Shown: positions 23,622 through 61,753, numbered from the stretch's first letter. The stretch: 64,000 nt of DNA from Candidatus Methylomirabilales bacterium (GCA_046758505.1 JBHIAH010000007.1:1-64000), one strand, 5' to 3'. Notes: generated from the letters alone by a model not told the origin. Numbers and translations are program-made.

Positions 23622-24158
23622 TTACGGGGAGCGTGGCTCCTCCAGGAGGCGGCGGATCCTCGCCTCCATCTCGCCATAGCCCCCCTCGCCAATCCGGGTG
23701 TAACGGATCACCCCACGCTTGTCGATGAGGTGAAGGGTCGGCCAGTAACGGGTCCGGTACCGATTCCACGTGGCAAAATCGTTATCGAGGGCGACCGGAT
23801 ACGGGATCCCCAGGGCGCGACAGGCCGACGTCACCTTGTCCAGAGGCTTTTCCCAAGCGAACTCGGGCGAGTGGATCCCGATGACCACCAGGCCCTGGGG
23901 CCCGAATCGCCGATGCCAATCCACCAACTGGGGGATGGTGTGCCGGCAGTTGATTCACCCATAGGTCCAAAATTCCAAGAGGATCACCCGCCCCCGCAGA
24001 TCGGCCAGACGCACGGGCGAGGAATTGATCCACACGGTGTTGGTCAGTTCGGGGGCCGCCCGCCCTATCATGGATGCCGCTGCCACCCGCGGACCGAGAA
24101 GCGGCCCCCCCACGAGGACGAGAAGAAACCACCAACCGAAACGTCTCTTTCTTCCCAT
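23622..24158 (-). CDS. Thioredoxin-fold redoxin (DipZ/TlpA-like), probable selenoprotein (UxxC)
   Basis: ORFs 23955-24206 and 23622-23927 are in one frame; they read ILLEFWTYG-TGA-INCRHTIP, then VIGIHSPEF and YWPT...IGEGGY; TGA at 23955-23957 replaces the first Cys of CxxC. Confidence 0.88.
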
Positions 24159-24680
24159 GCGTGCCTCCGGATATCCTACCGAACCTTTCCCATGGCCATC
24201 TGACAACCTGGCACCCCTCCCTCCCCACGCTGTTGAGACCTGCGGGGACCTCCGCCGCCCAGGTGCGCGGCTTCATGACTCTTGTACCGGTGTGCACGAG
24301 GATGTTTGTCAAGAAAAAGTAAAAACTTTGTGAAAAACGAACCTGCCGCCGGCATCCTCGTTGCGGCCTGCATCCGGGAAATATGCCAAGTATTTTTACG
24401 CGGTCATTTGCGACCGCAGCGGGGCGCATATGGCCATGTCAGCTGCGGCGCCCGTCGCCCAATACATGCACGAGAGGATCCTGCACACCTCTTGAAACGC
24501 GGTACCTGGGGAGGGAAGTGCAATGAGGAACAGAGCCGCGGGGCGAGCATAGGCCGCTTTGCTCCGGAGATGCCACTGCACAGGTGTCTGATCGATCGCT
24601 CGAGAAGATGAGAGCGCGGGCGCGCGTGAGATATACGTGCTACCCGGAAAACACGGCGGGGCCACGGGGGGCACCCGGGG

Positions 24681-25427
24681 TTAGAGGCGCTGGAAGAGCC
24701 ACGCGGGGGTGAAGCGGAGGGCAAAGGTGGACAGCAGGGTGAAGTAATCGCTGAGGAGCAGGACCCCCACGAGGATGAGAAAGACGCCGCTTGTGCGACT
24801 CACCCAAGGGAGGAGACGCTTGAACCGGGTGAAGAAGGCGAGGAACTGTCCGAAGAGCAACGCGCTGAGCAAGAAGGGGATGGCGAGGCCGGCGGCGTAA
24901 GCTGTCAGGAGGAGAATGCCTTGGCTGGCGTCCTGGGACGTACTCGCCATGACCAGAATCGACCCCAGGATGGGCCCGACACAGGGAATCCATCCGGCGG
25001 CAAAGGTCACCCCCACCAGGAAGGCCCCCACGTAGCCGCCGGGGTGACCCGTCAACTCCAGATGCCTCTCCCGCATGAGGAAGGGGAGGGGCAGCCACCC
25101 CGCGATGTGGAGGCCAAAGAGGATAATCAGGGCCCCGCCGACCTTGCGTATGGTGAGCTGATAATCAAACAGGAGCTGCCCGAGGGCCGTCGCCGACGCC
25201 CCGAAGGCGATGAAGATGACCGAGAAGCCGGCAATGAACGTCACGGCCCGCAAGAGGAGGTGGCGCCGATTCCTGGAATCGGCCACCGTGCCCTGAATCT
25301 CGTCCACGGAGAGACCACCCACGAAGGCAAGATACGACGGGATGAGGGGAAAGACACAGGGGGAAAGGAAGGAGAGCACACCCGCCCCCATGGCCACCAG
25401 GATCGATACCTGCGCCGCCGCAGTCAT
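24681..25427 (-). CDS. ccdA: Cytochrome c biogenesis / thiol-disulfide transporter CcdA
   Basis: SFLSPCVFPLIPSY and GWIPCVGPILG with the two conserved Cys; 6 TM. Confidence 0.92.
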   Translation of the reverse strand: MTAAAQVSILVAMGAGVLSFLSPCVFPLIPSYLAFVGGLSVDEIQGTVADSRNRRHLLLRAVTFIAGFSVIFIAFGASATALGQLLFDYQLTIRKVGGALIILFGLHIAGWLPLPFLMRERHLELTGHPGGYVGAFLVGVTFAAGWIPCVGPILGSILVMASTSQDASQGILLLTAYAAGLAIPFLLSALLFGQFLAFFTRFKRLLPWVSRTSGVFLILVGVLLLSDYFTLLSTFALRFTPAWLFQRL

Positions 25428-25567
25428 CTCGCCGAAACCGCCCCCTTCTCTCCCGCCTCCGTCCGGCTCCCCTCTTTCGATCCAAGCCATCCATCATGGT
25501 AATGGTCGCCGCGGTCTTTTGCAACCCTTGTCCCTCTCCCCGACGCGTGGCGTCCGGCGGCTCGGCC

Positions 25568-25843
25568 TTACGCCACCTGATCCGCCGGCTCCGACAGGTG
25601 CTGCCGTCGCTGAACCAGGGGAGCTTGCTCTGGAGGGACAACCGGCAGGAAATACCGAATGGTGAACCCACAGCCGCGGCAGCGGCGGTAATAGAAACGA
25701 AAGCCCCGTTCGTCCTCCTGGACCGTGCCCACCTGGACCATACCGGCGGCGCAGCAGTTTCGGGGAAGCGACGGAGAGATGATGTGTTTCGGATAGGCGT
25801 TCAGCGGCTTTTTGCTCGTACTATACTCGACAATCGTCTTCAT
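25568..25843 (-). CDS. Small Cys-containing (CC...CxxC) hypothetical protein
   Basis: MKTIVEYST...RNCCAAGM...RRCRGCGFT; RBS GGAGG; GGAAC-N17-CGTT promoter upstream. Confidence 0.65.
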   Translation of the reverse strand: MKTIVEYSTSKKPLNAYPKHIISPSLPRNCCAAGMVQVGTVQEDERGFRFYYRRCRGCGFTIRYFLPVVPPEQAPLVQRRQHLSEPADQVA

Positions 25844-25895
25844 GATTTCCCTCCCATGGGCATGTCCCCGACCTGAAATCGACCCCATCCATGGG

Positions 25896-25921
25896 AACGG
25901 CGCGCGGCCGCCAACGGTTCC
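25896..25921 (-). promoter_or_regulatory. ECF-type promoter (class B)
   Basis: GGAAC-N17-CGTT on the minus strand upstream of 25843. Confidence 0.55.
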
Positions 25922-26091
25922 CCGCTCTCCTAAGATTCCCAATCGGATCGTGCCCGTGAGCGCGGAATTCCCGCTTGGATGATATCGCCCTCCCCTCTAC
26001 CTCGCCCCGTCCACGCTGTTCGCGGACGCAGGCGCAAAAAACCCGCCGCTCCAAAGCAGACCGCAGTCGGAGGGCGGGTTGAAAGCCTGGG

Positions 26092-26907
26092 TCAGGACTG
26101 GGCCGTCTGGAAAAAGACGCGGGCGCACTGGAAGATCTCGTCCCACCCCACATCCGAGACGAGGGCGTAGGTGGTCTTCCCGCTTTCCCAGAGGAGGATC
26201 TGTTGCCCTTGATACTCGCCGCTCAGAAAGCTCCGCCCGTCTCGCCGGATCTCTGTCAGGCCGCTGAAATCCGCCCCATACCGGGGAAAGGCGAAGAGGG
26301 AAATGATGTTCCGTCCCTTTTCATACACGATATATCCCGCCCGCCGACCGCTCAGGCGCGCGACCCGTGCCCCCAGGAGCTGGATCCCCGATGTGCTGTA
26401 ATCGGGAACCCGGACGGAATACCCGAGTCGCCCCCGAACCCAGTGGGCGACCTGCTTGATGTTCTCACTGGGAAGCTCGGCAGGATTTTCCCGGAGGGCG
26501 AATTTCATGTGCTCCGACACCAGATCCGTCACCAGGGGGTGAAACCCGGGTCGGGAAGAAGGCTGCGCGACCAGATACCCGAGGGTCCCGCCGACGACGA
26601 AGAGAAGGATCGAAGCGGCCAACGCCAGGGACCAGGCCCGCCGGCCCCAGACGGCCGGGCGCGCAGGTCTCCCCTCGCTCTCCTCCGACTCCGCGATGGC
26701 AGACCTGAGCCTCTCCACGAGATGCGGCGGAACGGGTTCTCGAGCGACCGCCGCCCTGAGCCCCTCCCGGAATGCCCGTTCTCCTTCAACGACACTCCGA
26801 CAGGAGGGACATGCGTCAAGATGCCCCTCCACCTCGAGCATCTTCGAGGGCTCGAGCTCTCCGTCGCAATAGGCTTGAAGGTAGCGTGCAAATTCGTGAG
26901 CCGTCAT
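26092..26907 (-). CDS. Transmembrane anti-sigma factor with zf-HC2 (ZAS) domain
   Basis: YCDGEL...HLDACPSC, one TM helix, periplasmic domain; ATGA overlap with the sigma gene. Confidence 0.88.
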   Translation of the reverse strand: MTAHEFARYLQAYCDGELEPSKMLEVEGHLDACPSCRSVVEGERAFREGLRAAVAREPVPPHLVERLRSAIAESEESEGRPARPAVWGRRAWSLALAASILLFVVGGTLGYLVAQPSSRPGFHPLVTDLVSEHMKFALRENPAELPSENIKQVAHWVRGRLGYSVRVPDYSTSGIQLLGARVARLSGRRAGYIVYEKGRNIISLFAFPRYGADFSGLTEIRRDGRSFLSGEYQGQQILLWESGKTTYALVSDVGWDEIFQCARVFFQTAQS

Positions 26908-27455
26908 TGGTCCTCCTGGGAATTTCCTCCGCCCGTCGAGTACTCCTTCAGGGCGCCCCGCAGCGTCTGCCGACCCCGGTACAGCCGCGACATCACCGTC
27001 CCAATGGGACACCGGCAGATCTCCGCAATCTCCCGATAGCTACATCCCTCGAGGTCCGCCAGAACCACTGCCACCCGAAGCTTGGGGGGCAGGGCCTCGA
27101 TGGCCCGTTGGATGTCCTCCCCCGCCAGTCGATGGAAGAGATCGATCTCTGGGTCCCCGGGGACCACGCTGCCGACCCCTGCCTCCCGGTACACCCGCTC
27201 TTCATCAAAGTCGACCACGGGACGGGACGACTGGCGGATCCGATTGACAAAGAGACTATGCAAGATGGCAAAGAGCCAGGCCCGACAGTTGGTTCCCGGC
27301 TGGAACTGGTGGAAGAAGCGGTAGGCCCGGAGAAATGTCTCCTGGAACAGATCCTCCGCTTCGGTCTTATTCCGGGTCAGCCGGAGGGCCCCATTGTATA
27401 TACTGTTCATATGGACCAGGGCGGCTTCTTCAAATTCCTGCCGCTTCTGGTCCAT
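26904..27455 (-). CDS. ECF sigma factor (SigH/SigR-like)
   Basis: AEDLFQETFLRAYRFFHQFQPGTNCRAWLF region 2; SYREIAEICRCPIGTVMSRLYRGR region 4. Confidence 0.92.
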   Translation of the reverse strand: MDQKRQEFEEAALVHMNSIYNGALRLTRNKTEAEDLFQETFLRAYRFFHQFQPGTNCRAWLFAILHSLFVNRIRQSSRPVVDFDEERVYREAGVGSVVPGDPEIDLFHRLAGEDIQRAIEALPPKLRVAVVLADLEGCSYREIAEICRCPIGTVMSRLYRGRQTLRGALKEYSTGGGNSQEDQ

Positions 27456-27623
27456 CCCCTCAGGCCCCACGGAACCCTCCCCAGTGGAGGGGGTCCGGAG
27501 CCCACTGCCCGTTCCAAGAAGAAAACACCCCTCCCCCCGAAATATTCCCTCCGCATCCGGCTCCGGGCTTTTATCTTCTGCGAATTGCCCGCCGCTGTCA
27601 ACCGTGAAAGACCCCTCCCCCAG

Positions 27624-27649
27624 GGAATACGCCTGCGTCCCTGCGCGTT
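27624..27649 (+). promoter_or_regulatory. ECF-type promoter (class B) of the cytochrome operon
   Basis: GGAAT-N17-CGTT; a variant GGAAT-N17-GTT at 27701-27725 and a divergent one at 27524-27548 (minus) before the sigma gene. Confidence 0.55.
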
Positions 27650-27830
27650 TTCCTTACCTTAGAAGGGGATGCGAGGGCCGGAGGGCCCCGGAGTTTTGAG
27701 GGAATTTTTCTCTCCCCCGCCTGTTCTTCCAACGAGAGGAGAAGACCCCCGGAAGGGGTGTGTGGCGCGAGAGGGTCGTGGTGGGACGAGGCGGTTCCTG
27801 GGAAGAGGCCGTGGAGGGGGTTTGACCATC

Positions 27831-28880
27831 ATGAAGCGGACCCGAAGACAGACAATCATCACCTCGGTGCTGGGTCTCCTGCTCGCCACGGCCGGGGTCA
27901 GCGAGGCGCACCACGTGGTGCTCCAGAGCGGGCCGTTCCAGGCGATCATCCTCACCATTGTTGTACATCCGAAAAACGGCAAGCGCCTCTACCTGGGGTC
28001 CTTCGGGCGCGGGGTCTTCCGGACCACGGACGGGGGGAAGGTGTGGATCACCTCCAATAGCGGTTTGGAAAACCTGGAGGTGCAATCTCTCGCCATCGAT
28101 CCGCTTAGGCCGTCCACCCTCTATGCGGGCACGGACGCCGGGGTGTTCAAGACCACGAACGGCGGAGAGCGATGGGAGCTGGCCAGTACGGACGTCGCCG
28201 CGCGCAATATTCGGGCCCTGGCCATCGACCCCGCCCACCGTACGACGCTCTACGCCGGGACCGACGCCGGGGTCATGAAAAGCACGGACGGAGGGGCATC
28301 CTGGCGGGCGAGGAGCGACGGGCTCACCGCACCCGATGTCCGGGCCCTGGCCATCGACCCGAACACCCCCCACCGCCTGTATGCCGCGGCTTTCGGCGGG
28401 GTCTTTCTGAGCACGGATGGCGGGGGGCACTGGAGTGCCGTCACCCAGGGCATGGGGAACGAAAACATCCGGACCCTGATCCTCGATCCCCACAACTCCT
28501 CCACCCTCTATGCGGGTACGGCGACCCATGGGGTCTTCAAGAGCGAGGACGGTGGCACCTCGTGGCGCCCGGCTTCCCAGGGCATGGGAGAGGTGAGTGT
28601 CATGGCGCTCGCCATGTCCCCCTCCACCTCGACGCTCTACGTGGGGACGAGAGAGGGGCTATTCAAGAGCACGGATCGCGCGACCACCTGGGCACAGGTG
28701 GAACCCGATTCTTTCAGCCTTTCCATTACCTCGCTGGCCGCAGACCCTCGTCCGCCCGGAGTCCTTTACGTGGGGACGGGGGGACTCTTCTTCACAAGCG
28801 TGGATGGGGGGCGCAACTGGTCCGGGGTCCAGTGGGTGATTCATCCGGATCTTCCCTTTCAACATGTGGTCGAAAAGTAG
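27831..28880 (+). CDS. Secreted BNR/Asp-box beta-propeller protein (YCF48/VPS10-like)
   Basis: Signal peptide; seven repeats of LAIDP..P.TLYAGT..GVFKSTDGG.SW. Confidence 0.88.
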   Translation: MKRTRRQTIITSVLGLLLATAGVSEAHHVVLQSGPFQAIILTIVVHPKNGKRLYLGSFGRGVFRTTDGGKVWITSNSGLENLEVQSLAIDPLRPSTLYAGTDAGVFKTTNGGERWELASTDVAARNIRALAIDPAHRTTLYAGTDAGVMKSTDGGASWRARSDGLTAPDVRALAIDPNTPHRLYAAAFGGVFLSTDGGGHWSAVTQGMGNENIRTLILDPHNSSTLYAGTATHGVFKSEDGGTSWRPASQGMGEVSVMALAMSPSTSTLYVGTREGLFKSTDRATTWAQVEPDSFSLSITSLAADPRPPGVLYVGTGGLFFTSVDGGRNWSGVQWVIHPDLPFQHVVEK

Positions 28881-28895
28881 AAAGGAGGTGGCTTG

Positions 28896-29423
28896 ATGAA
28901 GGGATCGACCGTCCACCGGGTAGGTCTGGCCCTGGGAGCGCTTGCCGTTACGCTCCTCGTCTCGCACCCGAGTCCCGCCCAGCAGAAGAAGAAACAGATC
29001 AAGCCCGGGGTCTACGCCATGACGCTCCAGAAGGGGGACTCGATCGACGCGTCCATCGCCCGGGGCAAGAAGCTGTTTAACCAGATCGGCTGTGCCGGCT
29101 GTCACCCCCGGGGGGGAACCATCGGGGGGACCGCCTTCGACGTAGCAGGGAACCCGTTTCCGATCCCCATCCCCAAACTCCGGGGCTCGGCGCTCCACTT
29201 TCCTCGGATCGGGATGGGACCGGCCCGGGCCGTCCTGACCCTCGGGCAACTCAACGACCTTTGAAACACCGTCTTTCTTGGCCGTGAGCCAATCGATCCC
29301 AATTCCCAGGAGTGGGTAGACCTGTATGCATACGTCGCCTCTCTCACCCCGCAAGCCTACAAGGCGATGAAGGCGTGGGAGGCCAAGCGGCTGCAGTTGG
29401 AGAAGAAGGTTTTCGGAAAATAG
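28896..29423 (+). CDS. Monoheme cytochrome c of SoxA/TsdA-like type, probable selenoprotein
   Basis: Signal peptide, RGKKLF..IGCAGCH; in-frame TGA at 29262-29264 in TLGQLNDL-U-NTVFLGREPIDPNSQEWVDLYAYVASL; 52 further codons to TAG; hairpin TTGGC-CGTGA-GCCAA 13 nt after the TGA. Confidence 0.8.
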
Positions 29424-29473
29424 GGCGATGGCGGAACGTTCGGTGTGCCGTGCGAGACGAGAGGGGGTGAGGA

Positions 29474-30265
29474 ATGTCCTGGAGGGTATGGCCCCTGCTG
29501 GGCCTACTCGGTCTCATCGCGCTGATGACAACGTCCACGGGGAGTGCGGCTGACGAGGGGGACGTGAAGGTTGGGGAAGCCGTGTACAAAGAGATCTGCT
29601 TTGCCTGTCACGGGCTGACAGGTGGAGGGAATGGACCGAGCGCGCCCAATTTCAAACCCAGGCCGCAGGTCTTCGCCAATCCGGAGTACATGGCGCGGAT
29701 GCAACCCCAGTATATGTTCTGGGTGGTCAAATACGGCAAGCTCAAGGTCCTACAAAAGGAGATCCCCGGCTTCCCCCTGGGAGAGCCCCGATTCGTGGTG
29801 GACATGCCAGCGTTTGGCGACGTCCTCGAAGAGGACCAGATCCGTCGCCTCATCCAGATGGAGCATCTCTTGGTTGAAGGAAAAGCCATTCCCACGGACA
29901 TCCGCGAGATTTACGACGGGGCCTGCGCCACCTGTCATGGGCCGAACGGCCGGGGGGATGGAGAGCGAGCGGTCTCGCAGCCGGCCCCAAAGAGCTTTGT
30001 CAGCGAGATCCAGCCTCCACCGGCCAATTATACCAACGCCAAGCTCATGCAGCGCTTTAACGACGATTACCGGTTCACCCTGATCACGAAGGGGCGGCTG
30101 GCCGCAACCACGGAGGCCGGCTACACGACCATGCCCCCCTTCGGAGACGAACTGAGTGACCACGAAATCTGGAGCGTCATCCGGTACGTCCGGGAGACCT
30201 TTGTGAATCGGAAGGCGGCCCACGCGGCGAAGGGCCCGAAATCCCTTCGCCAATCGGCCCGCTAG
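29474..30265 (+). CDS. Diheme c-type cytochrome
   Basis: Signal peptide; CFACH and CATCH, each followed by MP(A/P)FG distal Met. Confidence 0.88.
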   Translation: MSWRVWPLLGLLGLIALMTTSTGSAADEGDVKVGEAVYKEICFACHGLTGGGNGPSAPNFKPRPQVFANPEYMARMQPQYMFWVVKYGKLKVLQKEIPGFPLGEPRFVVDMPAFGDVLEEDQIRRLIQMEHLLVEGKAIPTDIREIYDGACATCHGPNGRGDGERAVSQPAPKSFVSEIQPPPANYTNAKLMQRFNDDYRFTLITKGRLAATTEAGYTTMPPFGDELSDHEIWSVIRYVRETFVNRKAAHAAKGPKSLRQSAR

Positions 30266-30286
30266 ATGAGAACGACCGGGATCAGG

Positions 30287-30466
30287 ATGGATGCGGAAAC
30301 GTACTATTGTCCCCTGTGCCAGCGCGTCGTCGAAGAACACCTGCGGCCCATCCATGAGGTCGCCGAAGAATGGGTCATCGCGCACATCAAGGCGGCGCAC
30401 CCGGATTGGATCGAATCGAACGGCGCCTGCCCCACCTGCGTCCAGTTCTTCAGGAGCCGGCTGTGA
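30287..30466 (+). CDS. Small Zn-finger-like protein
   Basis: CPLC...H...IKAAHPDW..SNGACPTC; fills the gap in the operon. Confidence 0.65.
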   Translation: MDAETYYCPLCQRVVEEHLRPIHEVAEEWVIAHIKAAHPDWIESNGACPTCVQFFRSRL

Positions 30467-30578
30467 CTGCCGCCCGGTGCAGTCCCACCTTAGAAGCATT
30501 GGAGGTGATGCGGTGGTACGGTAAGGGGACGTTTTGGGACTTCGGCAGTGCTGTGCGCTTTGCGTAAGGAGGGAGAAA

Positions 30579-31157
30579 ATGCGTTGGAGTGTCGTCTGTA
30601 CGATGGCGCTGGCGGGCCTGCTGGCGTTCGCCAGCCCGCCAGTGGAGGCCGCGTATCACGGGTCCAATCCCTGTGCCGCGAACCCGTGCAATCCGTGTGC
30701 GGCCAAGGCCATGAATCCGTGTGCCGCCAATCCGTGTAATCCCTGTGCGGCGAAGAATCCGTGTGCCGCGAACCCGTGCAATCCGTGTGCGGCCAAGGGA
30801 GTTGCCCGAGGCCCCATCCCGGTGAGGACGGTGTGGGGTCAGGTGGTGTCGGCCTCTCCCCGATCCCTCGCGGTCAAGACGGATGGCAGGACGCTGAACC
30901 TGCAATTGACTCGGCGGACCGAGATCAAGATGGCCAGCCAGGGGATGGAGAGAAAGACCCTGCGCGATATCCGGCCCGGCGCCAGGGTTGCCGTTTCGTT
31001 CCTCGACAACAATGGCAGCCGGCGGGCCGCCTATGTCTACCTGACCCGAGCGGCGGCCAATCCGTGTGCCGCCAATCCGTGTAATCCCTGTGCGGCGAAG
31101 AATCCGTGTGCCGGAAGGTCGATGAACCCGTGTAACCCTTGCGGCGCGAGGAGGTAG
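30579..31157 (+). CDS. Secreted protein with 15 Asn-Pro-Cys repeats flanking a beta-rich (DUF5666-like) domain
   Basis: Signal peptide ending VEA; 9 NPC before and 6 after an approx. 85 aa domain; RBS AAGGAGG. Confidence 0.85.
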   Translation: MRWSVVCTMALAGLLAFASPPVEAAYHGSNPCAANPCNPCAAKAMNPCAANPCNPCAAKNPCAANPCNPCAAKGVARGPIPVRTVWGQVVSASPRSLAVKTDGRTLNLQLTRRTEIKMASQGMERKTLRDIRPGARVAVSFLDNNGSRRAAYVYLTRAAANPCAANPCNPCAAKNPCAGRSMNPCNPCGARR

Positions 31158-31168
31158 TCGAGGGCACC

Positions 31169-31198
31169 AGGGCCCTCCGGCGCAGTCCGGAGGGCCCT
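31169..31198 (+). terminator. 12-bp GC hairpin after the first NPC gene (terminator or mRNA stabiliser)
   Basis: AGGGCCCTCCGG-cgcagt-CCGGAGGGCCCT; no U-tract. Confidence 0.55.
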
Positions 31199-31227
31199 CG
31201 AACTTCACGCGAAAGGAGGTGAATGCG

Positions 31228-31632
31228 ATGCGAGTGCGGTCAATACGGTTAACCCTTGGGGTCCTGGCAACTGCTCTGGCCGTGGTCTTTGGAACTGCCG
31301 CGACCGGCCTAGCAGGTTCGGTTCCTCACAATCCATGCGCGGCCAAGGCGTTGAATCCGTGTGCGGCGAAGACGTTGAATCCGTGTGCGGCGAAGACGCT
31401 CAACCCGTGCGCCGCCAAGACCCTCAATCCGTGTGCGGCGAAGACGTTGAATCCGTGTGCGGCGAAGACGCTCAACCCGTGCGCCGCCAAGACCCTCAAT
31501 CCGTGTGCGGCGAAGACGTTGAATCCGTGTGCGGCGAAGGTCTTGAACCCGTGCTGCGCCAAGAGACTGAGCGCACAGCAGGCAAAGAACATCAACCCGT
31601 GCGCGGCCAAGAGTCCGACCTGCGGCAGATAG
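31228..31632 (+). CDS. Secreted NPCAAKxL-repeat protein
   Basis: Signal peptide then 11 NPC units; RBS AAGGAGGT. Confidence 0.85.
   Translation: MRVRSIRLTLGVLATALAVVFGTAATGLAGSVPHNPCAAKALNPCAAKTLNPCAAKTLNPCAAKTLNPCAAKTLNPCAAKTLNPCAAKTLNPCAAKTLNPCAAKVLNPCCAKRLSAQQAKNINPCAAKSPTCGR
31330..31569 (+). repeat. 10 x 24-bp coding tandem repeat (NPCAAKTL)
   Basis: Unit consensus AATCCGTGTGCGGCGAAGACGTTG; units 2-4 are identical to 5-7 (72-bp higher-order duplication). Confidence 0.95.
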
Positions 31633-31656
31633 GAATCGAATATCACACATCGCCAC

Positions 31657-31684
31657 GAGAGGCGGGTCTCTGGACCCGCCTCTC
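31657..31684 (+). terminator. 12-bp GC hairpin after the second NPC gene
   Basis: GAGAGGCGGGTC-tctg-GACCCGCCTCTC. Confidence 0.55.
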
Positions 31685-31699
31685 TGCTATACTCCCTTT

Positions 31700-32953
31700 A
31701 TGAGGCAATCTTGGAAAGGCATCCTGCTCGTCGGCACATGTCTCTGCCTGGTCTCGATGCTGCCGCTCGCCTGCTTTGCGCAGGGGGACCGCGCCGGAGA
31801 GCGCTGGACCGAGACAGCCCAGCTCGCCTTTCTCCAGAGGCACTGGCAGACCCCGATACCGCTGCAGGGCCCTCCTCCCACCACGTACTCGCAGCTCGAG
31901 GCTTCCCTCCAGCCGGAGAGCTGCGGCGTCTGCCACCCCCAGCAGTACCGGGACTGGAAGAGTACCCTCCACGCCCGGAGCATGGGGCCGGGCGTCCGGG
32001 GTCAGACCCAGGCCTTCGTCGGGCGGGATCCGGCCACAGCCCTCCTCTGCTACAGCTGTCATGCCCCCCTGGCGGAGCAGGCCGAGAAGCTCCAGGATCA
32101 GGGGACGTTCCTCGACAATCCCCAATTTAACCCCGATCTTCACCGCAAGGGGCTGACCTGTGCCGGATGTCACGTGCGGAACCACGAGCGGTACGGCCCC
32201 CCGTACCGGGAAGGAAGCCCGGCTGCCTCCCGGCCCCGGGAAGCACTCCCCCACCGCGGGGCCACGACGTCTCCGGCCTTCGAGCGGGCCGAGTTCTGTC
32301 GAAGCTGCCATCAGTTCGGGGAAGACGGCTATGCACTGAACGGAAAGTTCCTCGAGAATACGTACAACGAATGGAAAGCGGGACCGTACGCCCGGGCAGG
32401 GATTCAATGCCAGACATGCCACATGCCGGATCGGCGACACCTGTGGCGAGGGATCCACGACCCAGAACAGGTGAAGGGGGGGGTGACCATCCGCCTCACC
32501 ACGGGGAAGCCGCGATACCGCCCCGGTGAAACCGCCGAGGCGGTATTGGTCATCGAAAACAGTGGAGTCGGCCACTACTTCCCGACATACGTCACCCCCA
32601 AGGTCTTCGTCAGGGCAGAGCTGCTGGATCAGCGGGGAAAGGCGGTGAGGAACAGCCTCGAGGAGGCGGTGATCGGTCGCGAGGTCACCCTCGATTTGAG
32701 CCGGGAGCTCTACGACACCCGGATCCCGCCCCACCAGCGCTTCACCTTCCGGTACCACCGACCGATCAGGGGGAAGGGGTGGAGACTCCAGGTGCAGGTG
32801 ACGGTCCACCCGGATCATTTCTACGAGCGGTTCTTTACCTCGGTGCTGGAGGGCAGCACCTCTCCCGAAGGGCGAACGTTGCTCCAGGAGGCACTCGAGC
32901 GCACCCGGCGGTCCACCTTTTCGATCTTCTCGCGGAAGATCCCGATTTCGTGA
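31700..32953 (+). CDS. Pentaheme c-type cytochrome with C-terminal beta domain
   Basis: Signal peptide; CGVCH, CYSCH, CAGCH, CRSCH, CQTCH; WKSTLHARS; NSGVGHYFPT. Confidence 0.9.
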   Translation: MRQSWKGILLVGTCLCLVSMLPLACFAQGDRAGERWTETAQLAFLQRHWQTPIPLQGPPPTTYSQLEASLQPESCGVCHPQQYRDWKSTLHARSMGPGVRGQTQAFVGRDPATALLCYSCHAPLAEQAEKLQDQGTFLDNPQFNPDLHRKGLTCAGCHVRNHERYGPPYREGSPAASRPREALPHRGATTSPAFERAEFCRSCHQFGEDGYALNGKFLENTYNEWKAGPYARAGIQCQTCHMPDRRHLWRGIHDPEQVKGGVTIRLTTGKPRYRPGETAEAVLVIENSGVGHYFPTYVTPKVFVRAELLDQRGKAVRNSLEEAVIGREVTLDLSRELYDTRIPPHQRFTFRYHRPIRGKGWRLQVQVTVHPDHFYERFFTSVLEGSTSPEGRTLLQEALERTRRSTFSIFSRKIPIS

Positions 32954-32957
32954 GCGC

Positions 32958-33794
32958 ATGCTGATGTCCGGACTCGCGATCGCATTCGGATTCCTGCTCG
33001 CCGCCTCCCCCGTCCCATGTCCCGCGGACATGGTCCTCATTCCGGCGGGGCCGTTCATCATGGGGAGCGACCGGGCCGAGCGGGACTTCGGCTACCAGAT
33101 TGGCGGGGAACCCGCCCGCCGGTACCGCTGGTTTGATCACTGGGAGCTCCCCCGGCACACGGTGTCCCTCCCGGCCACCTGCATACAGAAGTTCCTGGTG
33201 ACGAATGAGGCGTACCGACGGTTCATCGAGGCGACCGGCCACCGCGTCCCCTCTATCTCCCGCGAGGCGTACCGACGGCAAGGCTACCTGGTACACCCGT
33301 ACACGGAGGTGGAGCGGTTCCTCTGGCACAGGGACAGATACCCCAAAGGGACCGGACAGCACCCGGTCGTCCTCGTCAGTCAGGCGGACGCGGGCGCCTA
33401 TTGCCGGTGGAGGTGGGCAGGGCGGATCTGCCGCCTCCCCAGCGAGCGGGAGTGGGAGAAGGGGGCCAGGGGGACCGACGGCCGCTATTTCCCCTGGGGA
33501 GACACGTGGCACCCGGAGTATCTGAACGCCGGCTATCGCATTGGGTATACGACGCCGGTCGGAAACTACCCGCAAGGGCAAAGCCCGTATGGACTCATGG
33601 ACGCTGCGGGCAACGTCTTCGAGTGGACACGGACCGAGTTCAGCCCGGGGAAGGCGGTCCTGAAAGGGTGCTCCTGGGACGATCAGGGGGGGATCTGCCG
33701 AGCCGCCGCCCGCCACGGGCGGGTCCGGGACGCGCGCCACATCCTCTTCGGCTTTCGGTGTGTCTGCGACGTGAAGACAGATAATGGGAGATGA
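32958..33794 (+). CDS. Formylglycine-generating enzyme (FGE/SUMF1) domain protein
   Basis: IPAGPFIMGS, HPVVLVS, RLPSEREWEKGARG, GNVFEW, FGFRC. Confidence 0.9.
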   Translation: MLMSGLAIAFGFLLAASPVPCPADMVLIPAGPFIMGSDRAERDFGYQIGGEPARRYRWFDHWELPRHTVSLPATCIQKFLVTNEAYRRFIEATGHRVPSISREAYRRQGYLVHPYTEVERFLWHRDRYPKGTGQHPVVLVSQADAGAYCRWRWAGRICRLPSEREWEKGARGTDGRYFPWGDTWHPEYLNAGYRIGYTTPVGNYPQGQSPYGLMDAAGNVFEWTRTEFSPGKAVLKGCSWDDQGGICRAAARHGRVRDARHILFGFRCVCDVKTDNGR

Positions 33795-33796
33795 GA

Positions 33797-34867
33797 ATGA
33801 ACGGATACGCCCTGAAGCACACGCTGATCCTCGGCCTGGTGGGGGTCTTTTTTCCCCTGGCCCGGGCCGCTGCACTCCCGGCGGGCCTGACCATCGATGG
33901 AGACCCGGTGATTACGGTCCTCCCGAAGGATGCCATCCCGGCCATCGACCAGCCCGCGTTTGTGTCGGTCCAGGAGGCCGATGCGTACCTCCGGGACAAT
34001 GAGCCGGTGCTGGGGGTCCGGCGAGGAGAGGTGGCGCGGGCCTACTCCCTCTGGCAACTCAACCACCATGAGATCGTCAATGACCGGGTAGGCAACCTCC
34101 CGCTCGCCATCACCTGGTGACCCCTCTGCTCGACGGGCATCGTGTATGTCCGACCCACACATCAGGGGAGGCCCCTCACCTTCGGCGTGAGCGGGATGCT
34201 GTGGAAAGACGCGCTGGTCATGTACGATCGAGAGACTGAAACCCTCTGGAGCCATTTCAACGCCAAGGCTATTCACGGCCCCCTCCAGGGGATGCGGCTC
34301 AAGCCCTATCCCGCGATCCATACGACCTGGGGGCAGTGGAAGCGGCTCTATCCGCACAGCCAAGTGCTGTCGAAGCGCTCCACTCTCGGCGTCCCCGAGG
34401 GCCGATACGACGTCTACCGCGGGTACATGGCGGATCCGAATCGCCTGGGCATCTTCGGGACGCGCAATCCAGACCCCACCCTCCCCGGAAAGGAATACGT
34501 CTTCGGCCTCACGCTCCACGAGGCGAGGGTGGCCTATCCGTTCCGCTTCTTGAGCCGCGCTCCGCTGGCCCACGATACCGTGGCCACCGAGCCGGTCCTG
34601 GTGGTCTTTGCGGCCCCCGAGGCGACCGCCGTGGCGTTCTCCCGCCGGTTGCGCGGGCAAACGCTGCAGTTCACCCATCTCCACCGGCGCAACGGGAATT
34701 GGGTGATGGAAGACACCGAAACCGGATCGCGCTGGCAGGCCCTCAAGGGCGAGGCCACGGCCGGACCCCTGAAAGGGTCCCGCCTCACTCCACTCCCGGG
34801 TCACCTGGTTTTTTGGTTCGCCTGGAAGGGATTCTACCCCTCGACCCGCCTCTGGCGGGGGCCTTGA
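33797..34867 (+). CDS. DUF3179-domain protein, probable selenoprotein (UPLC)
   Basis: ORFs 33791-34120 and 34142-34867 share a frame: KDAIPAID.P, HEIVND...ITW-TGA-PLCSTG, FGVSGML, MYDRETETLWS, FWFAW; hairpin CGGGCAT-CGTGT-ATGTCCG after the TGA at 34118-34120. Confidence 0.92.
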
Positions 34868-47182: not shown

Positions 47183-47848
47183 ATGGCATTGCCGCAAGCA
47201 AATTACCGGAAGAATCCACCAGGGATGCTGCGACACCTCGGGAAAATTGACCTGATCAAGACCCTCACCCACAAGTTCAGCGCCGAGGCTCGGGGCCTAT
47301 TTCAGCAGTTCCCGGGCACTCTCCCGGTGGGGGCCCCAGCGGCCGACATCACGCTCCAGACTGTCTCGGGCAAGACGGTCTCCCTGGGCAACTACCGGGG
47401 GAAGAAGCACGTGGTCTTGGAGTTCGGCTCGTTCACCTGACCCCCGTTCCGGGAGCAGGTCGCTCCCCTGAAGCGGCTCGAAGAGAAGTACCGGGGCCGG
47501 GATGTGGAGTTTCTCACGGTCTACGTCCGCGAGGCGCATCCGGGTGAACCGGGATACCGGGAGTACTCCCAACACCACAATTTTGCCCAGAAGCGTGACT
47601 ACGCCCGGCAGTTGATTGCCGAGGACAACCTCACCTGCCCTGTCCTCGTGGACGGGATGGACGAGGCGGTCCACCGGCAGTACGGCGGTCTCCCCAACAT
47701 GGTCTATGTGATCGATAAGGCGGGGACCATCGCGTACAAGGCCACCTGGACTGTCGCTGAGGAGCTTGATGCGGTCCTGATGGAACTCACTGCGAACGAC
47801 CCGGCTCATGCGCCGGCCTGCGGGTGCGGCGAGGAGAGGTGCCAATGA
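47183..47848 (+). CDS. Iodothyronine-deiodinase-like thioredoxin-fold protein, probable selenoprotein
   Basis: VVLEFGSFT-TGA-PPF, then FLTVYVREAHP and YGGLPN; ORFs 47183-47440 and 47504-47848 in frame; hairpin GGGAGC-AGGTC-GCTCCC 10 nt after the TGA at 47438-47440. Confidence 0.92.
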
Positions 47849-53552: not shown

Positions 53553-53561
53553 AGGAGAGAC

Positions 53562-57068: not shown

Positions 57069-57087
57069 CTGGATGAAGGAGGACACC

Positions 57088-57579: not shown

Positions 57580-57602
57580 AACACCCAAAACCTGGAGGGA
57601 CC

Positions 57603-59003
57603 ATGGCCTTACTCTGGATGGCCCTTATCGGTTACGGCGCGCTGATGTTTGTGGTCTCGCCCCGGGCCGTCGATGCCAAAGGGTTTTACTGGGGATACGA
57701 CGCCCGGGGTCGGGAGACCGGCTTCTGGTTGCTGACGAGCAGCACCTTTATCACCTGGATCTTTGCCAAGTCGGTGACGAACGCGGCCAACCTGGGTGCG
57801 GCATACGGCATTGTGGGAGGCCTCGCATACGCCACGTATTACCTCTCCATTCCGGTGGCGGGGGTCGTCATCACCTCGATCCGCAAGCGCCTGGGCGCCC
57901 GGAGTCTTTCCGAGTTCCTCGTCGGTCGCTACGGCCGAAGCGCGGCCACGGCCTTCCTCCTCGTCGTCACCATCCGGCTCTTCAACGAAGTCTGGAGTAA
58001 CACGGCGGTGGTGGGTTCTTATTTCGGGGAGAAAGGCTCCCCGGCGTTCTACGCCGCCGCCTTCCTCTTTACCGGCCTCACCCTCCTGTACAGCCTCAAG
58101 GGAGGACTCAGGAGTTCCATCATTACAGACAGCCTCCAACTCGTGCTGGCCGGATTTCTCCTCTTCCTCCTGCTGTTTCAACTGTTCCCCCGCGTCGGGC
58201 CGAGCGAGCTTCTCCGGGCGGGAGAGTTTTCCTTCAGCGGGGGCGTCGACATTCTTCTGGTCGCGTTCCTCCAGATCTGGAGCTACCCATTCCACGATCC
58301 GGTCCTCACGGATCGGGCCTTCATCTCAGACCGCCGGGTCACGGTCCCGGCCTTCTGGGCGGCCGGGATGGGCGGGATCCTGTTCATTCTCCTCTCCAGC
58401 CTGATCGGCATCTACGCGTACAAAGAGGGGCTCTCCTTTGCCGATGATGCGCCCCGGGTCGTAGGGGCATCTTTCGGCCTCGGCATTCTCTTTGCCATGA
58501 ACGTCATCATGCTCTGCTCGGCCGGCTCTACCCTCGACTCCACGCTCAGCTCCATCTCCAAGGGGGCCGGGGTCGACCTGCCCACCGTCGGGTTCGAGCG
58601 GTGGCGGGGTCGGGTCGGAGCCGGCAAGGTCGCCATGATCGCCATCGCCCTCTTGGGAAACCTCCCCCTCTTCGCGGGCGCCTCGATCCTCCAGGCCACC
58701 ACCATCAGCGGGACCATGGTCATGGGGCTCGCCCCGATCTTTCTCCTGCACTTCCTCGCGTCCGTCCCGCGGGCCTCGTTCCATCTCGCCTTCTGGAGCG
58801 GGCTGGGTCTCGGGATCCTGTACACCCTGGGGTGGCTCCCGTCTGCGCTGGCCATCGGGGACGGCCGGTACGCGATGCTGCTCGGGGTCAATCTGTACGG
58901 TCTGCTCCTCTGTACGGGACTCTTTCTCCTCCCCTGGATCTTTGGGCGCGTGACGCAGGCAAGACGTGCCCGCGGGAACGCCGTGAAGGAGATTCACCAG
59001 TGA
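57603..59003 (+). CDS. Sodium:solute symporter-like transporter
   Basis: About 13 TM; WIFAKSVTNAANLG, RLFNEVWSNT, KGGLRSSIITD, SYPFHDPVLTDR. Confidence 0.85.
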   Translation: MALLWMALIGYGALMFVVSPRAVDAKGFYWGYDARGRETGFWLLTSSTFITWIFAKSVTNAANLGAAYGIVGGLAYATYYLSIPVAGVVITSIRKRLGARSLSEFLVGRYGRSAATAFLLVVTIRLFNEVWSNTAVVGSYFGEKGSPAFYAAAFLFTGLTLLYSLKGGLRSSIITDSLQLVLAGFLLFLLLFQLFPRVGPSELLRAGEFSFSGGVDILLVAFLQIWSYPFHDPVLTDRAFISDRRVTVPAFWAAGMGGILFILLSSLIGIYAYKEGLSFADDAPRVVGASFGLGILFAMNVIMLCSAGSTLDSTLSSISKGAGVDLPTVGFERWRGRVGAGKVAMIAIALLGNLPLFAGASILQATTISGTMVMGLAPIFLLHFLASVPRASFHLAFWSGLGLGILYTLGWLPSALAIGDGRYAMLLGVNLYGLLLCTGLFLLPWIFGRVTQARRARGNAVKEIHQ

Positions 59004-59854
59004 CAACCCCCAGCGCGCCACTGCTCGAGCTGACCACGCTCTGGATCCAGGTGACCGGGAGTTGGTGCAATCTCACTTGCACCCACTGTCTCAACAGCAG
59101 CGGCCCCCATAACCCGTGGCTCAAGGGCCTGAATACCGAGACCGTGTTGCGCGCCATCGACGAAGGGGCGGACCTCGGCATCAGAGAGATCTACTACACC
59201 GGCGGGGAACCTTTTCTTCACAAGGACATGCTGTTGCTCATCTCCCGCGCCCTCGAGGTGGCGGCCACCACTGTCCTCACCAACGGCACCCTGATCACCG
59301 ACGAGGTTGCGGACAAGCTTGCGGGACTGGCCCAGAAGTCTCCCTACTCCCTGGAGATCCGGATCAGCATCGACGATATCGATCCGGAACGGAATGATCG
59401 GATTCGAGGAAAGGGGGCCCTCGCCAAAGCGGTCCGGGCGCTCGGCCTCTTGCACAACCGGGGCCTGCTTCCCATCCTCACCGCCACGGAGATCCTGAAG
59501 GACACGGTCACCGCGGAGAACGGGATGTATGAGCGATTTCGAGATTTCCTCCTCGCCCTCGGGATCAGCAAGCCTCGGGTCAAGATCATGCCCGTCCTCC
59601 CCATCGGACGGATGGAGAGACCGGGAGGGCCCCTGCTGACGCCGGAGATGCTTCAGGGCTTTGACTTTTCCCTGCTCCAGTGTTCGGAGACTCGCGTGGT
59701 GGCTGCAGGAGGGGTATATGCTTGCCCGATCCTGGCCGGGCTGCCGGGGGCCCGCCTCGCCGAGAAAAGCCTGAAGGCGTCGCTCGAGCCCTGCCGCCTG
59801 TACCACACGGCATGCGTCACCTGCTACGAGACAGGAATGACCTGCAAGAACTGA
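59000..59854 (+). CDS. Radical SAM protein
   Basis: LWIQVTGSWCNLTCTHC (CxxxCxxC), YYTGGEPF, VLTNGT; C-terminal C...CPIL...CVTC auxiliary Cys; GTG overlaps the transporter stop. Confidence 0.9.
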   Translation: MTTPSAPLLELTTLWIQVTGSWCNLTCTHCLNSSGPHNPWLKGLNTETVLRAIDEGADLGIREIYYTGGEPFLHKDMLLLISRALEVAATTVLTNGTLITDEVADKLAGLAQKSPYSLEIRISIDDIDPERNDRIRGKGALAKAVRALGLLHNRGLLPILTATEILKDTVTAENGMYERFRDFLLALGISKPRVKIMPVLPIGRMERPGGPLLTPEMLQGFDFSLLQCSETRVVAAGGVYACPILAGLPGARLAEKSLKASLEPCRLYHTACVTCYETGMTCKN

Positions 59855-60016
59855 GTGGGTAAGGAGTAAGGCGTGAGAGGTGAGGGGTGGGGAGCGAAGG
59901 GTGATGTGTACACAAGGCTCGAGGGACAAGGCGTCGGGCCGGAACGGCGGGCAGAGATCCTGAATCTCCCGACTCCGGTCACCCGTCCCCGGTCTCCGGT
60001 CGAGGAACTCTGAACT

Positions 60017-60817
60017 ATGAACGATGAACCGAGGGAGTGTCGGCGGATTGCCGTCTTCGGGGGAATCTACAGCAACTATCTTGCCCTCGAAGCCACCCTG
60101 GAAGACATCCGGCGGCGTGAGGTCGAGGCCGTCTTTTGCCTGGGGGACCTGGGGGCCTTCGGCCCGCATCCGGATCGGCTCTTCCCGCTCCTCGACGCGG
60201 GGGACGTGTTGACCATCCAGGGCAATTACGACCAGTCGCTGGCAGCCGGCCTGGACAACTGTCAGTGCGGCTACACCGATCCCCGAGACAATTACTTCGC
60301 CCGGCTGAGCTACGAGTACACGCTCCAAAACACCTCTCCCGAGAATACGACATGGCTCGCAAGGCTTCCGACCCACCGACGGGTACGCCTCGGGCAATAT
60401 CACGTCCTGATGTGCCACGGCTCTCCCCGGCGCATAAACGAGTTCCTGTGGGAGAGCACCTCCCCCAACTGCCTCCTGGAGAAGCTCTGCCGCGACTTCG
60501 GGGCCGACGTCCTCCTCTGCACGCATACCGGGATCAAATGGCACCGGGTCCTCCACGGAGACCGCCACGTGGTCAACGCGGGGACCATCGGACGCCCAGA
60601 GAACGACGGTCAGGTGCACGTCTGGTATACGCTGCTCACCGCCGAGAATGGCCTTCAGGTGGAGTTTGTCCCCGTCCATTACGACCACGAAACGCTGGCC
60701 TGCGAGATGGAGCGAGAGGGCTTGCCACCGGAGTTCATCGAGACCATCCGGACCGGCTGGTGGACCACCTGTCTCGAGATCCTCCCGGCCAAGGAGCGGG
60801 CCCGCGGCAAATACTAA
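60017..60817 (+). CDS. Metallophosphoesterase family protein (Cys-rich)
   Basis: FGGIYSN, CLGDL, QGNYD, CQCGY, CHGSP, CTHTG, WWTTCLEILP. Confidence 0.88.
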   Translation: MNDEPRECRRIAVFGGIYSNYLALEATLEDIRRREVEAVFCLGDLGAFGPHPDRLFPLLDAGDVLTIQGNYDQSLAAGLDNCQCGYTDPRDNYFARLSYEYTLQNTSPENTTWLARLPTHRRVRLGQYHVLMCHGSPRRINEFLWESTSPNCLLEKLCRDFGADVLLCTHTGIKWHRVLHGDRHVVNAGTIGRPENDGQVHVWYTLLTAENGLQVEFVPVHYDHETLACEMEREGLPPEFIETIRTGWWTTCLEILPAKERARGKY

Positions 60818-60943
60818 TAAGAGACGACGGGTGACCGAAGACGGGTGACCGGAACCTCCCTCTTATGTTGTCCGCTCTGCCGTGGCCGGTCTCCGGTCCT
60901 CGGTCACCGGTCAGATGCTTACGCGACCGCTGAAGGAAAGAAG

Positions 60944-61753
60944 ATGAGAAAAAGTCCCCGTTGGCTGGGTGAACTCGTCAACGCGATACTGGTGCGGCTT
61001 TTCAAGCATTTCCCGTGGCTGGCAGAGCGCTGGGCCAGAGGCCACCGGTTCGTCGAAGGGGAAGGGATCCCCTGGACCCCGCTGGACAAACCCCTTCGTG
61101 AGAGCCGCATTGCGATGGTGACGACTGCTGGCGTGCACCTGAAGTCGCAGCCCCCCTTTAACATGGAGGACCCGGAGGGGGATCCGACCTTCCGCGCGAT
61201 TCCCACGGATGCGGCCCGAGCCGACCTCACCATCACCCACAAGTACTACGACCATTCCGCGGCCGACCGTGATCTCAACGTCGTCCTCCCCATCGATCGG
61301 CTGAGGGAGCTCAAGGATGAGGGGTTGATCGGCGAAATCGCACCCACCCTCTATAGCTTCATGGGCCACATCGACGGCCCGCATCTCAAGACCCTCATGG
61401 AAGAGACAGGCCCTGAGGTGGCTGAACACCTGGTTCGGGAGGGGGCCGACGCCGTCTTTCTCACGCCGGCCTGAGGCCTCTGTAACCAGGCCGTGGGCCT
61501 GATCCAGCGGATCATCGAGGCCAGGGGGATTCCGACCATCGGGATCACCCTCCAGGAGGAAATCACGAAGCGGGTCAACCCCCCCCGGGCCCTCTCCCTC
61601 CGCTATCCCTTCGGCCATCCCCTGGGAGAGGCCTTTCACGTGAGGCAGCAGCGGACGATTCTGGTCGAGGCACTCAAGGGGCTGGAGACCATCACGGAGC
61701 CGGGAACTATTCTTAAACCAGGATACGTCTGGCGGAGGCACCGATTCGACTGA
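60944..61753 (+). CDS. Glycine/sarcosine/betaine reductase selenoprotein B (GrdB/PrdB)-like protein, probable selenoprotein (UGLC)
   Basis: IAMVTTAGVH, GDPTFR, DRDLNVVLPIDRLREL, DAVFLTPA-TGA-GLCNQAVGL..IEARGIPT, PFGHPLG; hairpin CAGGC-CGTGG-GCCTG after the TGA at 61472-61474. Confidence 0.92.

Follow-up and report, generated by a model that had tools for sequence, protein, structure and literature searches.

Five selenoprotein genes within 38 kb in a Candidatus Methylomirabilales bacterium include a predicted selenocysteine form of a SoxA/TsdA-type cytochrome

The draft genome of Candidatus Methylomirabilales bacterium (GCA_046758505.1; 2.99 Mb in 149 contigs, 96.8% complete) carries, in bases 1–64000 of contig C7 (JBHIAH010000007.1; GC content ~63%), five genes with an in-frame TGA codon that a prediction made from the sequence alone (hereafter the original prediction) had assigned to selenocysteine (Sec). 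The whole 64000 nucleotide (nt) stretch analysed is referred to as the window. The five genes encode a TlpA/ResA-like redoxin, a monohaem cytochrome c, a DUF3179 protein, a deiodinase-like protein and a PrdB/GrdB-family protein. When each TGA was read as Sec, coding sequence was found on both of its flanks, and a Pfam or NCBIfam domain runs across, or up to, the TGA in each gene; all five TGAs are almost certainly Sec codons. Their first bases are at 23957 (minus strand), 29262, 34118, 47438 and 61472. The four plus-strand positions agree with those of the original prediction, and the position it gave on the minus strand, 23955, is the last base of the codon and not the first. The peptide contexts it had listed (YG-U-INC, NDL-U-NT, TW-U-PLC, FGSFT-U-PPF and TPA-U-GLC) were reproduced exactly.

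The gene containing NDL-U-NT had been left unplaced, and was found to be the unusual gene of the five. It encodes an exported monohaem cytochrome c of the SoxA/TsdA family (coordinates 28893 to 29423, plus strand), with a CAGCH motif at residues 67–71 and Sec124 in the context N-D-L-U-N-T (codon 29262–29264), and a match to Pfam Cytochrom_C (residues 55–151) spans the TGA. Homologues in the databases are cut at this codon, being 103–134 amino acids (aa) in length with no more than 70% query coverage among the best 120 of 180; one of them, with 89% identity, is also labelled Candidatus Methylomirabilales bacterium. Loci were retrieved from nucleotide data using patterns from the C-terminal part of the protein, so that the codon itself was not selected for. 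They came from three order-level relatives, five named metagenome-assembled genomes (MAGs; two labelled Deltaproteobacteria, one Acidiferrales, one Rokuibacteriota and one Binatia) and 66 metagenome contigs, giving 75 loci with the window copy. A TGA was present at the column in 73 of the 73 loci that hold it, the other two starting after it, and conservation within the protein was highest in the segment following the TGA.

When 1.84 billion representative proteins were searched with a profile made exclusively from Sec forms, 260 matches at E ≤0.001 were returned, among which cysteine (Cys) homologues had E values from 1e-48 to 1e-10. Among the top-ranking matches that cross the column, Cys was present at this position in all 25 of the non-Sec homologues aligned. 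The invariant columns in an alignment of 28 sequences were G58, C67, C70, H71, G74, P104, U/C124 and L144, and the U/C column is the only invariant potential haem ligand in that alignment other than the CxxCH motif.

All six of the Cys homologues tested matched the NCBIfam SoxA model TIGR04484 (E 2.2e-27 to 0.004; best score 95.8 bits), and the best-scoring Sec form, L164, matched it directly (E 2.1e-8, 33.7 bits). When the family profile was compared with structures in the PDB, SoxA (1h31_A, E 3.1e-13) and TsdA (4wq7_A, E 1.1e-11) were found. In the TsdA alignment, His53 of the chain falls under the CxxCH motif and Cys96 under the U/C column, which also aligns with the Cys of both SoxA domains. 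Cys96 is Cys123 of the TsdA precursor, described in PMC4423706 as the haem ligand that bears the S-thiosulfonate intermediate. A weak collinear match of the Sec-only profile to the dihaem peroxidase 3o5c, in which U fell on a Met, was superseded by the significant TsdA/SoxA alignment. The TGA of this gene is decoded as Sec, the protein is a member of the cytochrome family that includes SoxA and TsdA, and its Sec occupies the column of the TsdA ligand.

Several observations count against a closer assignment, or against placing Sec on the haem iron. The window cytochrome itself scored only E 0.15 and 11.4 bits against TIGR04484 and no family member reached the curated SoxA cut-off of 110 bits, hence its homology to TsdA and SoxA is transitive, via the Cys homologues. 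The residues that bind thiosulfate in TsdA (Arg109, Arg119 and Ser127 of the precursor) are replaced, the family consensus being Pro, Met and Phe. AlphaFold2 models generated from 9 and then from 57 sequences had a mean predicted local distance difference test (pLDDT) score of 47.5 and 59.0, respectively, with values below 50 around the haem pocket, and a Foldseek search of the PDB with the second model gave no match at E ≤0.001, the top rows being TsdA at E 1.5, which were not counted. Both models are too poor to position Sec with respect to the haem, and predicted structures therefore lend no support to Se–Fe ligation. The cytochrome is a relative of the SoxA family and not a SoxA equivalog.

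The genetic context of the cytochrome gene is conserved. The first gene of the module, immediately upstream, encodes a BNR/Asp-box beta-propeller (coordinates 27822 to 28880, plus strand; Pfam Sortilin-Vps10, PSII_BNR and BNR), and a homologue of it was found upstream in 39 of the 41 loci for which the sequence extends 600 nt or more in that direction. Downstream is a gene for a dihaem cytochrome c (coordinates 29474 to 30265, plus strand; Pfam Cytochrome_CBB3 twice and Cytochrom_C), homologues of which are present in 53 of the 55 loci with sufficient room. An NPCAAK-type C-terminal tail with two to eight PC motifs is carried by 44 of 58 distinct complete homologues of the Sec-cytochrome. The window cytochrome has no PC motif, and the repeats are borne by a separate exported protein of 192 aa encoded two genes downstream (coordinates 30579 to 31157, plus strand), which has NPCAAK/NPCNPCAAK cysteine repeats at both ends and matched no Pfam or NCBIfam family.

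From the alignments and the gene neighbourhood, we infer a chemistry, partners and a substrate for the cytochrome. Sec is somewhat more likely than otherwise to ligate the haem through selenium, in which case the selenolate would be the sixth ligand of the c-type haem. It would then leave the iron to form a covalent Se–S (or Se–Se) adduct with a chalcogen substrate, a step modelled by analogy on the cysteine S-thiosulfonate cycle of TsdA. Electrons would pass to the dihaem cytochrome encoded next door, which is its probable electron partner and which we take to resemble TsdB or SoxX. The NPCAAK Cys-rich repeats, which most lineages have as part of the cytochrome itself but which here are on a separate protein, may be carrier arms comparable to SoxY.

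The main alternative, resembling MccSep in that Sec would lie next to a haem without binding it, is that Sec is a free catalytic nucleophile beside a haem that is either His/His-ligated, via His102, or five-coordinate. His102 is invariant in 57 Sec-clade sequences and absent from the Cys forms, making it a potential sixth ligand and a further point against ligation by Sec, and in MccSep the ligand is Cys239 with Sec325 as its neighbour (PMC13510729). However, the residue aligned with the ligand Cys, both in TsdA and in the two SoxA domains, is that of the U column and no other, and in the Cys forms that column provides the only invariant candidate ligand. The free nucleophile is therefore considered unlikely and ligation by Sec is preferred. 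More tentatively, and at less than even odds for the claim as a whole, the cytochrome may be a natural c-type haem enzyme with a His/Sec axial ligand pair, acting with the dihaem cytochrome, the BNR propeller and the NPCAAK arms in an undescribed periplasmic system for chalcogen transfer or oxidation. Selenium would be obligatory in the clade, and the system would extend across uncultured lineages of groundwater and soil, namely Methylomirabilota, Rokuibacteriota, Binatia, Acidobacteriota and MAGs labelled Deltaproteobacteria.

The other four genes fit, in domain, Sec position and motif, the recognised families (redoxin, DUF3179, deiodinase-like and GrdB-like) to which the original prediction had assigned them. 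DUF3179 (UxxC/T), deiodinase-like (PF00837), PrdB/GrdB (UxxC), TlpA-like and Redoxin UxxC proteins are all catalogued selenoprotein families in Table 1 of the review PMC13188914.

The redoxin gene (coordinates 23622 to 24158, minus strand) encodes an exported TlpA/ResA-like selenoprotein with a hydrophobic N-terminus and a UxxC motif (U-I-N-C) in the context W-T-Y-G-U-I-N-C (Sec codon 23955–23957). The Pfam families AhpC-TSA (57.3 bits) and Redoxin (41.7 bits) both span the TGA, and Thioredoxin_8 was also over its cut-off. Among the matches listed, which include rows from the unpublished genomes G007 and G021, all orthologues covering the column (51–80% identity) have the TGA, and paralogues with 30–37% identity do not. 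The gene adjoins one for a CcdA/DsbD-type membrane thiol transporter (coordinates 24681 to 25490, minus strand; Pfam DsbD_TM, 59.7 bits) here and in same-genus relatives, and this protein is probably the supplier of reductant to the redoxin.

The exported DUF3179 selenoprotein (coordinates 33791 to 34867, plus strand; Sec codon 34118–34120 in T-W-U-P-L-C) matches PF11376 over residues 46–352 with 290.5 bits (cut-off 27) and has the UxxC motif W-U-P-L-C. A single TGA was found in 19 of 19 matches covering the column (55–81% identity) in 60 relatives. TGA-free paralogues exist for this protein, as for the redoxin.

The deiodinase-like selenoprotein (coordinates 47183 to 47848, plus strand; Sec codon 47438–47440 in F-G-S-F-T-U-P-P-F) matches PF00837 T4_deiodinase with 75.3 bits (cut-off 27) and NCBIfam NF038285 with 116 bits, below the cut-off of 250. 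The 60 relatives yielded no close orthologue. At the Sec column, 30 of 32 full-length distant homologues have Cys (FGSFTCPPF), one has Ala and one has Trp. A further 25 database matches shorter than 200 aa are fragments of 121–177 aa, and the 12 of these whose N-terminus was examined begin just after the TGA. The window protein has U-P-P-F, in contrast to the UxxC given for the deiodinase-like family in the review PMC13188914.

The fifth gene (coordinates 60944 to 61753, plus strand; Sec codon 61472–61474 in T-P-A-U-G-L-C) encodes an orphan PrdB/GrdB-family selenoprotein. It matches the PrdB equivalog model TIGR04483 over residues 44–264, spanning Sec, with 187.7 bits against a cut-off of 300, and is just over the cut-off for the subfamily TIGR01918 (65.6 versus 65.45 bits). 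One TGA was present in 46 of 50 matches in relatives, one row being from the unpublished genome G007, and the four matches lacking it are fragments that stop short of the column. PrdA/GrdE (PF09338) and GrdA (PF04723) were not found in the genome by a search that also left control genomes unmatched and so had no positive control. As these partners were not found, the PrdB-like protein is considered to lie outside any canonical proline or glycine reductase; being an orphan that scores below the equivalog cut-off, it differs from the catalogued PrdB/GrdB proteins. Upstream of the gene, and in the same orientation as it, are those for a sodium:solute symporter, a radical SAM protein and a metallophosphoesterase, the whole group spanning 57603–61753.

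The original prediction had inferred a selenoprotein-rich organism and proposed a search for selABCD, and tRNA-Sec, SelA, SelB and SelD were all found. ARAGORN identified the tRNA-Sec, with anticodon UCA, on contig C16. SelA (608 bits) and SelD (407 bits) score above their curated cut-offs, SelD having one in-frame TGA of its own, and SelB scores 333 bits against a cut-off of 242. As 733 of 1450 confident long open reading frames (ORFs) end in TGA, it remains the main stop codon and has not been reassigned genome-wide. The window TGAs would be read by the standard bacterial SelA/SelB/SelC/SelD system, aided by a hairpin 13–21 nt downstream.

To count Sec genes in the whole genome, codon usage was scored on both sides of every in-frame TGA. 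Of 19,925 candidates, 132 passed the coding filter. Put aside from these were 39 in which a Met occurs no more than eight codons beyond the TGA and there is no Cys motif, then the five genes already known and 24 both preceded and followed by long ORFs. This left 64, of which 60 were examined using Pfam, the other four having low scores. A TGA-spanning domain was found in 13 further genes, encoding three Prx-like proteins and one each of Trx-like, UGSC, YeeE/YedE, SelD, ArsM-like, MetE-like, CYCXC, VKOR-Trx, AhpD/CMD and Trx-NHL type. Four more were ambiguous, and one of these, a member of the HDAC family, was added to the count as its TGA is kept in 14 orthologues. This brings the selenoprotein genes of the genome to at least 19. 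Two points detract from this picture: SelB is cut by a contig end after position 391 of the 581 in the model, and the count, coming from a filtered scan, is a lower bound.

Some of the additional genes merit separate description. In the HDAC-family protein (L042; G000:C18:8210–9073, minus strand) the TGA lies in the middle of the domain, and the 14 orthologues that keep it have 63–89% identity (rows from the unpublished G007 and G021 included), one other at 63% lacking it. The MetE-like protein (L044; G000:C19:1909–3015, minus strand; Meth_synt_2, PRK06520-type) has its TGA in F-H-L-U-R-G, which presumably corresponds to the His-x-Cys motif that ligates zinc in MetE. The TGA is retained by eight orthologues and lacking in one with 65% identity. 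Neither the HDAC family nor the MetE-like family is present in Table 1 of the review PMC13188914. The ArsM-like methyltransferase (L033; G000:C10:46496–47242, plus strand) has Sec in W-S-E-U-V-G-G, and its best NCBIfam matches are double/triple selenoprotein models, ArsM/AhpD (302 bits) and MTase/UXPK-star (282 bits), both under cut-off. Two further candidates, each with a TGA within a domain and a GU-loop hairpin, are a TolB-like PD40 propeller (L032; G000:C10:39919–40770, minus strand), for which the sole PD40 homologue found (61% identity, in the unpublished G021) lacks the TGA, and a YdjM-like membrane protein (L056; TGA at 11469 of G000:C43, minus strand). Each of these two may be either a Sec gene or a pseudogene.

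The four clear hairpins that the original prediction described after the TGAs, and a weaker bulged candidate in the redoxin gene, were found in the sequence. With the U of UGA counted as 0, the stems of these potential Sec insertion sequence (SECIS) elements start at +16 in the cytochrome gene (29274–29296; UUC..UUGGC-CGUGA-GCCAA..GA), +16 in the DUF3179 gene (34134–34152; CGGGCAU-CGUGU-AUGUCCG), +13 in the deiodinase-like gene (47451–47467; GGGAGC-AGGUC-GCUCCC) and +15 in the PrdB-like gene (61487–61501; CAGGCC-GUG-GGCCUG), all on the plus strand. The redoxin candidate is at +21 (23919–23936, minus strand; AUCC-CC-CAGUU-GG-U-GGAU, with a bulged U). SECIS elements of the E. coli fdhF type typically form a hairpin immediately 3' of the UGA, with G-U at the apex, the GU being the general contact for SelB binding in bacterial SECIS elements.

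The frequency of such hairpins was assessed at 18 Sec sites that had been picked by coding potential and Pfam, independently of hairpins. A plain stem of at least 5 bp with a G in the loop was found at 16 of the 18, but it also followed 46% of the 726 true TGA stops and 48% of the 3000 Cys codons used as controls; as nearly half of the background has this feature in a genome of 63% GC, it is weak evidence. A stem of at least 6 bp with GU in the loop was more discriminating, being present at 11 of 18 Sec-UGAs versus 51 of 726 stops (7.0%) and 198 of 3000 Cys codons (6.6%), a significant enrichment (Fisher P ~1e-8). None of the three outcomes that the original prediction had named as refuting it was observed: the Sec machinery is present, the hairpins are enriched and, for the two genes whose distant homologues were read at the column, Cys is found there.

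Comparison of orthologues supports three of the hairpins as conserved elements. At pair +17/+29 of the cytochrome hairpin, 54 distinct orthologous sequences have U-A (38) or C-G (16), and none is unpaired. Both changes are synonymous (Leu CTT/CTC and Pro CCA/CCG), indicating that they are compensatory. The DUF3179 hairpin is identical in 12 orthologues, with every wobble position fixed while neighbouring wobble positions vary, and the PrdB-like hairpin is likewise identical in seven distinct orthologous sequences, with fixed wobble positions and variable flanks. For the redoxin, RNAalifold, applied to five distinct orthologues, favoured another long stem from +3 to +34, and the bulged hairpin is a weak candidate.

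The original prediction had further proposed that the hairpins follow a lineage-specific CGUGN pentaloop consensus that could be used to mine the genome. CGUGN is common to three of the five window genes, and loops containing GUG are overrepresented at Sec sites, occurring at 6 of 18 as against 5.8% for true stops and 4.4% for Cys codons. However, only 22 of the 19,925 candidates match CGUGN, comprising the three from the window and 19 others, which, save for two short upstream flanks slightly above zero, are in frames with negative coding scores. The rule thus recovers just 3 of 19 Sec sites, all within the window, and the other sites have GUU, GUC, GGU or AGU loops, or loops without GU. The three window loops are also partly fixed by the codons they contain (Gly-Arg-Glu, Ile-Val-Tyr and Ala-Val-Gly). 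Such a consensus is therefore improbable, and the feature that the sites have in common is the ordinary bacterial GU apex, present at 12 of the 18. As 1,439 of the 19,925 candidates pass the looser GU rule for 11 of 19 true sites, hairpins alone cannot be used to mine the genome and must be combined with evidence from coding potential and homology. A search of the whole window against all Rfam families at E values up to 10 yielded no SECIS family, as expected for elements so short and variable, and no credible match of any other kind. The window hairpins resemble bacterial SECIS elements of the E. coli fdhF type in site, in their G-U apex and in a loop distance within the range of the bSECIS model, and nothing systematic sets them apart.

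That some or all of the TGAs are true stops, pseudogene lesions or assembly errors followed by untranslated frames is very improbable, since, although public gene calls stop or start at these codons and the database homologues of the cytochrome (103–134 aa among the best 120 of 180) and the closest ones of the deiodinase-like protein are correspondingly short, the TGA is kept at one column in orthologues down to 50% identity from several phylum-level lineages, the segment after it is the most conserved part of the cytochrome, distant homologues of both proteins have Cys at the column and the genome encodes the complete Sec machinery.

The presence of five Sec genes within 38 kb exceeds chance expectation. 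In simulations, the probability of at least five falling in 38.2 kb was 0.0002, 0.00075 and 0.0031 for 18, 22 and 30 randomly placed genes, respectively. As the five genes sit in different operons, they do not form one functional cluster, and their proximity is explained by history, namely an old linked set plus an insertion. Judging from gene order, the redoxin, DUF3179 and PrdB-like genes constitute the old set, being also together in relatives. In six same-genus relatives, the redoxin–CcdA–anti-sigma–sigma group directly adjoins DUF3179. The distance from DUF3179 to the PrdB-like gene is 3.3–4.2 kb at six loci of five order-level relatives (G033:C10, G033:C6, G035:C35, G045:C18, G055:C210 and G058:C204) and ~27 kb in the window and in same-genus G001 and G009. 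DUF3179 and PrdB-like are thus two Sec genes whose linkage is conserved.

The six same-genus relatives lack ~6.3 kb (27.5–33.8 kb of the window) between the sigma factor gene and DUF3179. The genes for a zf-HC2 anti-sigma factor (26092–26907, minus strand; Pfam) and an extracytoplasmic function (ECF) sigma factor (26904–27470, minus strand; Pfam) are beside DUF3179 in these relatives, and hence mark the left edge of the insertion. It contains genes for the BNR propeller, the Sec-cytochrome, the dihaem cytochrome, a 66-aa CxxC...CxxC protein, the NPC-repeat protein, one further ORF and, in its right part, a multihaem cytochrome (31700–32953, plus strand; Pfam) and an FGE-sulfatase-like protein (32958–33794, plus strand; Pfam) just upstream of DUF3179. 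The last two were not found between the sigma factor gene and DUF3179 in the six relatives. A search of 13 same-genus genomes for the Sec-cytochrome gave only one match, at chance level (E 4.9e-4), and 27500–33800 is probably an acquired island. NCBIfam matches to the multihaem cytochrome and FGE-sulfatase-like pair (31700–33794) were weak and far under cut-off, one being to ExtKL (53.3 bits) and the others a weak resemblance of the FGE-sulfatase-domain protein to the selenoneine synthase SenA and to EgtB (71.9 and 67.2 bits).

Overall, we give a probability of about 0.8 to the joint reading that the five TGAs are Sec codons, that the genes were brought together by the history described and that the cytochrome is the Sec form of a SoxA/TsdA-type, Cys-ligated family. 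For four of the genes the consequence is limited to corrected annotation, as their families and the richness of Methylomirabilota in selenoproteins are already in print, a Methylomirabilota MAG with 63 predicted selenoprotein genes being cited in PMC13188914. Table 1 of that review lists 119 prokaryotic selenoprotein families, including three multihaem or CXXCH entries, and the whole table contains no SoxA/TsdA-like or PF00034 monohaem cytochrome. Full-text literature searches returned no description of the Sec-cytochrome family, although the candidate families of Deng et al. 2026 could include it, and the deep-Sep paper does not mention cytochromes. As far as this literature check reaches, the cytochrome is a new Sec form of a known enzyme family and a new entry for the selenoprotein catalogue. 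Public gene calls cut the family at residue ~120, losing its best-conserved segment, and the conserved three-gene module is present in abundant uncultured subsurface bacteria.

The classic example of a haem ligand doubling as catalytic nucleophile is provided by the SoxA/TsdA enzymes, and a natural Sec form, invariant over 73 loci, offers a ready means of testing the influence of the chalcogen at the iron on that chemistry. The Sec-cytochrome is like TsdA and SoxA (PDB 4wq7 and 1h31) in its c-type haem domain, its CxxCH motif and its conserved distal Cys column, occupied here by Sec, and in having a separate cytochrome partner, which is encoded next door. It differs in having one haem domain where they have two, and Sec where they have Cys, in all 73 loci of the clade. 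The Arg/Arg/Ser thiosulfate binders of TsdA are not conserved in the family, its scores are below the SoxA cut-off and, unlike TsdA and SoxA, it is flanked by a BNR propeller and mostly carries an NPCAAK tail.

Cytochromes P450 contain a non-covalent b-type haem and are mostly cytoplasmic or membrane-bound. The native Sec-ligated P450 described in a preprint (PMC11703216) has TGA/Sec at the position of the axial Cys, as does the Sec-cytochrome at the equivalent column, and is likewise cut at the TGA in databases, but it is a monooxygenase, whereas the Sec-cytochrome is an exported c-type cytochrome of the SoxA family. MccSep/ExtKL, the five-haem Sec polysulfide reductase of Geobacter sulfurreducens, as described in PMC13510729, is also a periplasmic c-type cytochrome selenoprotein, with a His/Cys-type haem centre and a chalcogen substrate, the last being a property that we infer for the Sec-cytochrome. 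It differs from the Sec-cytochrome in fold, haem number and family, and the haem ligand in MccSep is Cys239, with Sec325 lying nearby, whereas in the Sec-cytochrome the ligand column itself is occupied by Sec.

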